Positions 30,215 through 34,390 are shown, counted from the stretch's first letter. The stretch is 64,000 bases of DNA from Eledone cirrhosa (GCA_964016885.1 OZ024761.1:22258001-22322000); one strand, 5' to 3'. The notes: generated from the letters alone by a model not told the origin. Numbers and translations are program-made.

Positions 30215-31041
30215 TATGTTCGCAGCCAATACACTCAAGTGTTCTTTAAAAATGTTATTTCAAGTTACTCCAGTACACTCAGCTGAGGAGTTAATCCTAC
30301 GATAGACTAGAGCCCTGTCCAGGGAGAGTCTTGTACTATGAGGCACTTAACGCCAACGAAAGCTTAAACTTTATATATACTAAATTTAGATTTAATTAAT
30401 ACATATATTATTACAAAATTCGATAGTTTGCGTCTTTTTATTTATTTAGAGTAAGATATACATTACCACCTTGAAGCAAGTATATTTACTTACATATAAA
30501 TTATTCTGTATATCTGTACAAAATACTAGTAGTTTCTCAATGGATATATAAATATAGAAACGGAATGACCGTGAGGTGACACTGGAAATATATCGTCTTA
30601 TCTCGCCTTCGTTCTGTTTCTATATATTTTTTTTTTAAATACATAAAATTCTACCTATAAGTCTGACTAATCTACTCAGTAGAATTGCGCTTTTGCGTGG
30701 CGTTCCGGGCTTCGCTGTCGTACTTCGGTATGGCATGACCACTCTATCGTGTCTGAAGTTCGAATCGTTGCGGGGTCGGCACGGGACTATTTTGCAGGCT
30801 GGCCTGCGTCCTGCAGCGTAGAGAGGGTTTCATTTTTGTTAAAAAATCTTACTAGAGTTATCTCCCTTTATTTGAATTACTTCCCTTTGTGGAACTCTTC
30901 TGTTTCTGTTGTCATTTCACTTTATTGGATTCAATCGGTAACATCGTTCTATTACACCGGGACTTTGTTAGAATCATTCTGGATATTTTACTCTTTGAAA
31001 GAGGTATGTAATGTTTTATTTGCCGTAAATACATTCTAAAC
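30215..31041 (+). repeat. Left arm of large inverted repeat
   Basis: Reverse complement of 33561-34390 with only a few substitutions and indels. ORFs 30749-31039 (+) and 33530-33730 (-) give the same peptide. Confidence 0.97.
30688..30837 (+). ncRNA. Candidate structured small RNA gene, copy 1 (Pol III-like signals)
   Basis: TATAA 30656-30660, A-box-like TGGCGTTCCGG 30698-30708, B box GTTCGAATC 30758-30766, T5 30833-30837, and the hairpin UGUCGUAC-UUCG-GUAUGGCA. It is a GC island in AT-rich DNA. Family not recognised. Confidence 0.4.
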
Positions 31042-32944
31042 ATTGCCAACACTCACAAATATTCACCTACATTATGTTTTCTTCTTTTAAATTTGTTTCT
31101 ACACTCGCAAATATCTCTGAGGTACAAAAATACGTTTGTTCTACATTCAAACACAAAGCTCCATTTATATATATGCATTCTCTTAAGAAAACAACCCTTT
31201 AGACACATATATAATGCTTCATTTGCCGTGTAGAGAAAATATATACATGTAGAATTTAGTATACTTAAAAGACTACTATATACCAACATAGAAGTACCTA
31301 AACACTTTATTTTAGACAGTTCTCTCTCTCTTGGTACATAAATACACACCCTTCCTTCTACAATATATATACATTCAGTGAAACCTTCTCTCTATATACA
31401 TTTTATTATCTTCTCCATATCATATATCGAGTTGCTTCGTCATCTGTGAATCTCAGCAATTTGAGGATCACCCATACTGGCTTTCTTCATCAACTCAGTT
31501 TGATGACAAATAACTATTCCTGTTAGCTTTACTGGGAATACTACTTGATCCTAAATTACAGAGCTCCATCCATATAAACCCTCTAGACACACTATCTTTT
31601 TAATTCTTTGCTAAACACTCGTATGTAATATTTTATTTGCCGTAAATCTACTCTAAACAGGAAGACAATTTAGACATTGCTAACAGTCTACAGATAGAAC
31701 ATTTATATATGTGTCTAAGGTACTAAACAATCTCTCTAATATACACAGCTACATCTTGTCTATACATGAAGAAACCCTCACTTCCCTGTCATCTCCCCGA
31801 CACTATATACATTCAGAACGAATATTATTTATTTTACATCAGCAAACCTCCCAGATTTGTTTCATTTACAAATATCCTATTTTGGATCATTGTACTAAAT
31901 ATATATACACACAGATCTGAGAGCCCCCTCTTCCCGTTAACACCACCTATATATAAATGATCCTCACTAGATACAAAACTAAACCTTTATATTATATTCA
32001 TCTTTTTCTAACAGGGTCTGGTAAGAAATGGAAGCTGGCTGCACCTGTCCATGAAGAATAAATAAAAGAATAAATCAAATCTCTCGTTGTTGCTTTATTA
32101 AAACTGCGTGTGTATAAATATATAGACAGGGCTACATTTATAAACACCTTTTCTAAGGAACCATCTGTATATATAAATATGATTCTCATTAGACACATTA
32201 ATTACTTTCTTCTGTATATTTATTAAACAACATATACACTTCTGTGTATATTAGGTAAGAAATAGCTATACTCTATAGACAGCTCTTATTACTTAAACAA
32301 GCCCTCTCTTATATACACACACACAGAGCTACAATTATATTAGAGATACTTCTTTTAAGAAGTTAAGCCTCTTCTATATAGGATAGTGTATGTATATAAA
32401 TACACAATCTCTAATATAACATGTATGTATAGGTATACATACAGGGAAGTTCGTTCGTGTATAAGTAACAATAGCCGTCGATAGAATACAGCTATTTCCT
32501 ACCTAGTATACTAGGTAAGGAATAGCTGTATTCTATAGACGGCTATTGTTACTTATATACGAATGAACCCTCTTTATTATATATACACACACACACAGAG
32601 CTATATTAGAGATAATAAATAATGTACATACATTATCATATATTTCTCTAGCTGTGTGTATATATACAGGAAGAGATACACTACAAACCTCTTCTGTAAA
32701 GAAAATTCGGAACAAAATAAACTACAATTTTTTTTTTTAATGTTGAATATATTTATTTCTTGTAGCTGTGTGTATATACACACACTCGATGGTAGGCTGG
32801 TCATCAGAATCACTTCAGCAACATCCCTGGAAAGAAACAAACAGTATATATTAATATAAAAACAATTGAACATCAATATTGTGTAAGGACAAACTAAGCT
32901 ATCTATACAGTGAGATACCTTATTCGTTTCTACACACAAAACAG

Positions 32945-33013
<69 letters not shown>

Positions 33014-33560
33014 AGCATGTACACATGAAGTGGTATTCCTAGTAAAGCTATTGAGAATAGTTGATTGCCATCAAACTAAATGAAATGTGTAAGGGAGAGA
33101 GGACTGAGGTTCACAGATTACGAGGCAACTCGACATAGAAAGTATGGTATAAAGATAATAAAACGTGTATAGAGGGAAGGTTTCGTTATACTTCATTGCA
33201 AGTATGTCGAGAGGAGATGGAAGGGTGTGTAATTATATATACAGGGAGACACGGTTACCCGATCTAACTTGCCCCTAGTGGGACAAACCCATGCTAGGGT
33301 GGAAAACAACCGTTAAACTATGGAGTACCGGAAATAAACTGTTTAGGTACCTCTATGTGTATATAGTAGCCTTTATGTAGAGAGAAGTTATATATATGTA
33401 CTACAAAATTCTTCCAGTATATATGAGTGTTTAGAAATAAATTTAAAAGATGAGGCATTACATATGTGTCTAGAGAGGTTTTTATTCTTAAGAGATTGCA
33501 TATATATATATAAAAGGAGCTTTGCTGTGTTAGAAATGAAATAAAGGTATATCTGTGAGT

Positions 33561-34390
33561 GTTTGGAATGTATTTACGGCAAATAAAACATTACATACCT
33601 CTTTCAAAGAGTAAAATATCCAGAATGATTCTAACAAAGTCCCGGTGTAATAGAACGATGTTACCGATTGAATCCAATAAAGTGAAATGACAACAGAAAC
33701 AGAAGAGTTCCACAAAGGGAAGTAATTCAAATAAAGGGAGATAACTCTAGTAAGATTTTTAACAAAAATGAAACCTCTCTACGCGGCAGGACGCATAAAG
33801 CCAGCCTGCAAAATAGTCCCGTGCCGACCCCGCAACGATTCGAACTTCAGACACGATAAAGTGGTCATGCCATACCGAAGTACGACAGCGAAGCCCGGAG
33901 CGCCACGCAAAAGCGCAATTCTACTGAGTAGATTAGTCAGACTTATAGGTAGAATTTTATGTATTTAAAAAAAAAATATATAGAAACGGAACGAAGGCGA
34001 GATAAGACGATATATTTCCAGTGTCACCTCACGGTCATTCCGTTTCTATATTTATATATCCATTGAGAAACTACTAGTATTTTGTACAGATATACAGAAT
34101 AATTTATATGTAAGTAAATATACTTGCTTCAAGGTGGTAATGTATATCTTATTGGAAATAAATAAAAAGACGCAAACTATCGAATTTTGTAATAATATAT
34201 GTATTAATTAAATCTAAATTTAGTATATATAAAGTTTAAGCTTTCGTTGGCGTTAAGTGCCTGATAGTACAAGACTCTCCCTGGACAGGGCTCTAGTCTA
34301 TCGTAGGATTAACTCCTCAGCTGAATTTACTGGAGTAACTTGAAATAAAATATTTTTAAAGAACACTTGAGTGTATTGGCTGCGAACATA
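33561..34390 (-). repeat. Right arm of large inverted repeat
   Basis: Ends in ggctgcgaacata, the reverse complement of tatgttcgcagcc at 30215. Confidence 0.97.
33764..33915 (-). ncRNA. Candidate structured small RNA gene, copy 2
   Basis: Mirror copy with A-box TGGCGCTCCGG, the same B box and UUCG hairpin, and a possible 11-bp closing stem UUUUGCGUGGC/GCCGCGUAGAG. Confidence 0.4.

Follow-up and report, generated by a model that had tools for sequence, protein, structure and literature searches.

Gene conversion between inverted repeats is known from several systems (PMC3004938, PMC3449122, PMC8327919). Palindromes on the primate X and Y chromosomes have arms of more than 8 kb with more than 99% identity, a likeness maintained by conversion between the arms (PMC8327919). 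The foldback elements Tetris of Drosophila virilis and Galileo (named in the same source) have long inverted arms whose outer domain measures about 0.85 kb, with sub-repeats farther in and a non-coding middle (PMC4079207). In bacteria, recombination between the 23-bp terminal inverted repeats (TIRs) of an insertion sequence, a mobile element, is accompanied by conversion (PMC3004938). Here we describe a palindrome at positions 30215-34390 of a 64,000-nucleotide stretch of Eledone cirrhosa DNA (GCA_964016885.1, OZ024761.1:22258001-22322000), the whole of which is called the window. The palindrome is a real inverted pair of a repeat-derived unit of about 1.3 kb that has diverged over its inner 510 bp. 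We consider it probable that the outer 822 bp were overwritten from arm to arm, by a single long and recent tract or within a short burst. The mechanism is known; the small example is new. It would document, in compact and natural form, how one arm was written over by the other despite a divergence of perhaps 15-30%, and the edge of the tract can be read to the base.

The locus resembles the primate palindromes in having arms more alike than their age implies, an unstable, rearranged centre and a possibly hemizygous chromosome. It falls short of them in both arm length (0.8 kb, or 1.3 kb in all) and identity (97.7%), and differs further in that its arms hold no protein gene, a diverged inner stratum is kept and homogenisation was possibly a single event (PMC8327919). 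The foldbacks share its architecture as listed above, but unlike Tetris and Galileo it has no 8-10-bp target-site duplication (TSD) and no dispersed near-identical copies, and its ends are its least shared part (PMC4079207). As in the insertion-sequence case, the proposed overwriting is of an inverted arm by its partner inside a single copy, although that case concerns a mobile bacterial element with short TIRs (PMC3004938). Cephalopod palindromes were not found in the open-licence papers searched on arm-to-arm conversion or on octopus sex chromosomes and populations.

The first-pass annotation, made from the window alone, had described the outer arms as almost exact reverse complements, and the alignments agree. 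BLASTN matches 30215-31042 to 34390-33560 with 97.6% identity over 833 columns. With refined boundaries, the left outer arm (30215-31036, plus strand) is 822 bp long and the right (33566-34390, minus strand) 825 bp; 808 of 827 columns are identical (97.7%), and the 19 differences group into 11 events. The longest perfect run between the arms is unremarkable (P=0.56) and the differences are spaced as a single event could leave them; the spacing does not tell single from recurrent conversion, and ongoing concerted evolution is not demonstrated by it. When all inverted matches of at least 90 columns within 6 kb were collected across the window, the palindrome was the sole long near-identical pair, the others being dispersed repeats. 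The flanks outside the palindrome have no mutual homology (score 30, shuffles up to 44). Each outer arm contains an internal hairpin (30545-30630 in the left arm) detected as an nhmmer self-match, with a folding z of -6.9, the top of 98 windows. CpG stands at 1.1-1.2 times its expectation over the arm's outer 600 bp, at 0.8 over its remainder and at 0.45 in the inner arm and spacer, a contrast that spans 30830-33025 versus 30215-30830.

The patchy, more diverged inverted homology that the annotation had placed inside these arms (31045-31550 versus 33025-33560) is also real, and both pairs of sequences it quoted as examples are present in the BLASTN alignment. Two blocks align, 31154-31312 with 33524-33332 (68.7% identity, E 1e-14) and 31335-31549 with 33239-33025 (69.4%, E 1e-19). 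The local alignment score of 120 far exceeds the maximum of 35 among 200 dinucleotide shuffles. A global alignment has 304 identical columns among 488 aligned, with 14 gaps; identity ranges overall from 62 to 69%, and the best block has 62 of 73 columns identical. The left inner arm (31037-31549, plus strand) is old and indel-rich. The change from outer to inner arm is sudden and keeps the register: over 30870-31049 all but one of 171 aligned columns (170) are identical, and in the next stretch 31 of 59.

The right inner arm (33025-33565, minus strand) carries a fragment of a dispersed high-copy repeat (33243-33322). A third, old copy that covers part of the inner arm lies at 36146-36479 (plus strand), 1.8 kb outside the palindrome and in the orientation of the right arm. 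It contains this 80-nt insert in the identical position and with an identical short deletion inside it; the left arm lacks the insert. Informative sites group the right arm with the third copy six times, the left arm with the third copy three times, and the two arms with each other three times. The common insert and these site patterns indicate that homogenisation has not touched the inner arms from a time before the repeat inserted, and that the arm unit is old at this locus. The third copy at 36146-36479 was checked for a continuation into outer-arm sequence, and none was seen.

Copy number was estimated from short-read contigs. The arm is present in four runs, all of one study, and every run listed bears one species label. 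No RNA run was listed among them, X4 being of unspecified kind. Depth ratios per run used two arm contigs and four to five interior contigs, the longest among those listed. Outer-arm depth divided by the interior mean is 1.72 in run X1, 1.66 in X2 and 2.02 in X3, and these ratios of 1.7-2.0 indicate just two near-identical arm copies and no third. A contig of X1 equals the left-arm version over 521 nt and one of X3 the right-arm version over 523 nt, each with 0 differences. Run X2, which carries other alleles, gives an equal set of pieces, and its contig record 15 crosses the right outer end, covering 33868 to 34479. Contigs chain through the interior except at a microsatellite (32932-33022).

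These data also bear on whether the palindrome was produced by assembly, through a false fold-back or through polishing that merged the arms. No piece spans the structure, contigs enter the arm by 30 letters at both inner junctions (one short of the criterion for bridging), the left outer end is bridged by none of the listed contigs, and the assembled individual may be the source of X1 and X3. Against this stand the two-fold depth in three of three deep runs, the exact contigs of both arm versions, the same pieces from the other alleles of X2 and inner arms that are old homologues, and we regard such an error as scarcely credible. The annotation had named an artefact, or many dispersed TSD-flanked copies of a plain TIR transposon, as what could overturn its account; an artefact or a young dispersed transposon is unlikely.

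The outer arm is a mosaic of segments that have dispersed relatives. Depth summed over contigs at 80% likeness in X2, in units of X2 single-copy depth, gives orders of magnitude and not copy numbers: about 370 at 30248-30347, 200 at 30498-30547, 150-230 at 30698-30797, 70 at 30998-31047, 55 at 31398-31497, 10 at the terminus and 1 at 31098-31297. At the arm's outer end, 30241-30360 (plus strand; mirror 34245-34366) resembles a short interspersed element (SINE), with about 370 times single-copy depth, and a profile built from five SINE copies in the window matches 30241-30289 (E 4e-4). This segment may include a V-SINE-like domain. Short motifs of the segment were not found in the part of the SINE-literature supplements that was covered. 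Exact searches of metagenome contigs with a 22-mer and of viral contigs with an 18-mer gave 0 matches each.

Relatives of the arm also describe its history. Other loci hold colinear pieces that chain 30287 to about 31400 through contig joints, and two relative contigs cross the outer/inner step, joining 30998-31027 to 31381 onward; the outer and inner parts were therefore one ancestral unit. A site table of 102 rows was compiled, of which 40 were considered and three, from the collapsed arm contig, were dropped. At 22 sites the majority of X2 relatives have another letter than the left arm. The arms agree with each other at 19 of these, the right arm keeps the relatives' letter at the remaining three, and about 12 nt near 30702 are missing from both arms. 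The agreement and the common deletion indicate that the arms coalesce long after their split from the relatives. Since site sharing alone follows from 98% identity, the case for copying also needs the inner divergence and the two-copy count. Taken with these, recent arm ancestry beside diverged inner arms is likely to be the signature of later arm-to-arm copying.

The proposed course of events is as follows. An old inverted duplication would have come first, possibly, though this is weakly indicated, by fold-back at a hairpin in the spacer (described below); a fold-back mechanism of duplication at hairpins has been reported (PMC7999016). The arms would then have diverged, the right inner arm gaining its repeat insert before being partly copied to 36146-36479, an order suggested by the common insert. 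Later, a break in one outer arm may have been repaired from the other, the tract halting at the indel-rich step from 31037 onward and at the outer end of homology. Both arms have mutated since, as the polarity of their differences against the relatives shows. Conversion tapers as divergence grows (PMC3449122), and the diverged inner part would stay beyond the reach of later copying. A mutation rate of 2.4e-9 per generation from another octopus (PMC13669787) gives rough, uncorrected dates: the outer arms would have parted about 3 million generations ago, if in one event, and the inner arms 30-60 million generations ago. Function is unnecessary to explain the palindrome. What stands of the first-pass annotation's account is an old inverted duplication in which the outer part was homogenised; the two copies, the in-register step, the shared private differences and flanks free of homology or TSD support it. 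Recurrent conversion is not demonstrated, as the spacing of the differences suits a single event.

Another route to the same arms is a one-ended template switch, in which only the inner arms are old and a broken end switched there and copied 822 bp outward once, leaving a non-homologous outer junction. The uniform spread of differences, the sharp steps at both ends, the lack of old homology beyond the outer ends and the position of the left end beside another repeat (30124-30198) would all suit it. However, outer and inner segments are already joined in relatives, which makes it probable that each of the old copies had an outer part, and we find this route improbable. As to which flank carries on the SINE, and which arm was the donor, the signals disagree: nhmmer matches ran past 34390 and the SINE profile did not.

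Several observations weigh against arm-to-arm overwriting of an old inverted pair. No single read or contig covers the whole palindrome. The agreement at 19 of 22 sites dates the coalescence of the arms and by itself proves no conversion, being expected at 98% identity; moreover, it was counted in 40 of the 102 rows of the site table, and the comparison was with dispersed relatives in place of an outgroup species. Multi-letter clusters make up 4 of the 11 outer-arm difference events and are unexplained. There is no old homology beyond the outer end, though a two-ended tract normally leaves some; this also fits a one-ended switch or the end of an element. The axis of the spacer hairpin (32508) sits about 220 bp off that of the inner arms (32287), and the sequence halves between hairpin and inner arms align insignificantly (47 versus a shuffle maximum of 50).

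The end of an element is what would be expected if the locus were an old, immobile long-TIR (foldback) DNA transposon whose TIRs of about 1.3 kb carried repeat scraps and were later converted mutually, which is the same copying with another origin. The long inverted arms, sub-repeats and non-coding middle are those of a foldback or Mutator-type element, and foldbacks with outer domains of 820-870 bp exist, as in Tetris (PMC4079207). Colinear diverged relatives chain along the arm as described, and a 26-nt motif recurs within it like a subterminal repeat, at 31005, 31208, 31622 and 33572. One other locus matches the arm from 30218 (X2 record 2). The ends can be read as TGT...ACA (TGT at 30217, ACA at 34388) flanked by TA or by TGTA/TATA, the latter agreeing in three of four letters, in AT-rich DNA and with many offsets tried. 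Ginger-type elements have TGT...ACA ends with a 4-bp TSD.

The first-pass annotation saw neither a transposase frame nor a clear TSD, and neither was recovered here. None of the 15 palindrome frames tested, the longer ones of 61 stop-to-stop frames listed, reached the Pfam cut-off, two sub-threshold matches being attributable to chance. No TSD of 5-11 bp, and thus none of 8-10 bp, was found at nine end offsets with two mismatches allowed; the ends offer only weak 2-4-bp pairs (TA/TA, TGTA/TATA and similar). With no 8-10-bp TSD, no transposase and a single-copy interior, a terminal bin of about 10 units against 150-380 for internal segments, the reverse of what a TIR family gives (short contigs cannot show diverged complete copies), and old partial copies nearby that tie the unit to this locus, a transposon origin is unlikely. 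Of the annotation's long-TIR alternative, a plain young TIR transposon finds no support in the two near-identical copies and the missing TSD, and what survives is the old immobile element with converted arms.

Relatives of the arm also bear on a different class of element. Beyond 30356 they run into a CTGATGA-containing stretch, where the arm has AT-rich DNA. That stretch may be the core of a hammerhead or, possibly, the central domain of a SINE. A Penelope-type tandem or inverted insertion, later partly homogenised, could account for such relatives, and inverted flanking and partial tandem copies are typical of these elements (PMC8557442). Neither a hammerhead (Rfam) nor a reverse transcriptase or GIY-YIG frame (Pfam) was matched, and one insertion implies one age, where at least three are present (1.3% outer, 15-30% inner); a Penelope origin is highly improbable.

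Within the outer arm, the annotation had pointed to a candidate RNA gene. Lophotrochozoan vault RNA genes have TTACTTCG after box A, a box B with at least GTTC, a T-run terminator within 150 nt and a panhandle of 80-150 nt (PMC8824774). At 30702-30793 (plus strand; mirror 33810-33901 on the minus strand) the arm has GTACTTCG at 30720, with seven of the eight letters of TTACTTCG, box B as GTTCGAATC at 30758, TTTT at 30790, and a panhandle fold; TATAAG lies upstream at 30656. The region resembles known vault RNAs in its GTTC box B, its T run, a length of about 90 nt and an upstream TATA-like box, and more tentatively in its TACTTCG motif and panhandle. It differs in its weak box A, in having no Rfam match, in its apparently 150-230 near-identical copies and in the decayed look of the arm copy (PMC8824774, PMC7058938). 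For comparison, five vault RNA genes are reported in Fasciola and four in human (PMC8824774, PMC7058938). Cephalopod vault RNA was not found in the open-licence literature searched.

Model searches gave little. Box A was absent by both strict and loose patterns. The Rfam vault model had no match at E<=10 on 201 bases (30660-30860), where Rfam gave one chance match. Over the window there were 0 Rfam gathering matches, with only generic hairpin (miRNA-model) matches below the cut-off in 29500-35200, and a tRNA scan returned 0. A resemblance between the region of the TACTT motif and the C box of 5S rRNA was dropped as the Rfam 5S model had no match. The panhandle has a z of -2.4 to -2.5 in the left copy, with ends chosen post hoc, and of -1.2 in the right; 6 of 98 arm windows reach -2.5. 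The motif pattern, partly fitted post hoc, occurs only in the two arms within the window and once in 30 shuffled windows. Changes in the relatives at 30705 and 30745 keep the fold, and that at 30707 (with 30778 in X5) mends a G-G mismatch of the arms; a change at 30715, in X5 only, breaks a pair. The single relative aligned over 30781-30795 has no T run. As an observation in its own right, 30698-30797 belongs to an apparently 150-230-copy near-identical family with vault-like motifs and structure-compatible changes that is not in Rfam; its many near-identical relatives fall in few contigs.

If the segment were a working vault-like gene that RNA polymerase III (Pol III) transcribes, with its two arm copies kept alike by selection through repeated conversion, the motif set with its panhandle, the restriction of the pattern to the arms and the mostly stem-preserving changes among relatives would follow. 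However, the RNA region differs between arms at two positions in 92 nt and is no better conserved than the rest, the right copy folds weakly, the arms carry a deletion and the G-G mismatch relative to the relatives, Rfam is silent, the box A pattern is absent and the commonest relative covering 30781-30795 lacks the T run. Such a gene is very unlikely to be what keeps the arms alike. Judged from these features, the segment has the look of a degraded copy from a high-copy family with structure, be it vault-like or a mere repeat, and is not classed as a vault RNA. Because the family stands at roughly 150-230 times single-copy depth and both arms share the loss of about 12 nt and other changes, the segment is not established as the driver of homogenisation. 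The annotation's candidate therefore keeps its vault-like motifs and loses its uniqueness and its role in homogenisation. A high-copy vault-RNA-like family outside Rfam could matter more than the palindrome.

The spacer of about 1.5 kb has the size noted earlier and is not blank. It contains a near-perfect hairpin (32455-32562; four mismatches in 52 pairs, 4-nt loop, -77.8 kcal/mol, z -18) whose looser arms reach 32376 and 32643; 32376-32643 resembles a second, miniature two-age palindrome with a near-perfect tip and looser outer arms. A diverged direct copy of 32494-32616, the right half of the hairpin, is recognisable by similarity at 32234-32350 (plus strand). At 31621-31766 (plus strand; profile E 4.8e-9) part of the arm sequence that surrounds the outer/inner step is present again as an old direct copy, whose 26-nt motif is one letter off 31005-31030. 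A strong splice-donor-like site at 30998-31010 opens this motif, and in relatives the motif is joined to many upstream positions; the arm could comprise a promoter and a first, non-coding exon belonging to a repeated gene family. A reading of the spacer halves as decayed arms around the hairpin was set aside as not significant by the scores given above.

The dose of the locus differs among runs. Among X1, X2 and X3, only X2 carries other alleles at 31007-33595, and the three runs carry one sample label. In 14 repeat-dominated bins the depth of X2 is 1.15 times that of X1 and 1.11 times that of X3, while single-copy contigs at the locus are 1.9 and 2.5 times deeper in X2. After repeat scaling, the locus is therefore at about half dose in X1 and X3. 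Either a hemizygous Z or a haplotype without the region would fit; the contigs listed included none from a unique flank. Cephalopod females are ZO and have a hemizygous Z (PMC10925132); Z linkage of the locus is tentative, well short of an even chance. The names of the neighbouring genes were not found in the open-licence papers searched on the Z chromosome. By its half dose the locus would either belong to a hemizygous chromosome or have a deletion allele, and this signal too could matter more than the palindrome. It would be a long shot that everything combines, with the palindrome on the cephalopod Z (single copy in ZO females) as a mammal-like miniature kept by conversion, its arms carrying one of about 200 vault-like Pol III RNA genes, or vault-RNA-derived repeats, that form an undescribed family.

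The window consists of animal DNA in which microsatellites and SINE-like repeats abound. The palindrome sits between an exon encoding a CH domain (Pfam; 10729-11415) and a gene with protein kinase exons (Pfam Pkinase; about 36953 to 47246, minus strand). We presume that the former is GAS2-like and take the latter to be MAPK7/ERK5. Just right of the palindrome, 34627-34770 is a very high-copy repeat that resembles a decayed minimal hammerhead. A small element resembling a miniature inverted-repeat transposable element lies at 29682-29827, with inverted ends of about 37 bp that are 86% identical, and a 6-kb minisatellite with units of about 34 bp and a strong strand skew occupies 17730-24060.

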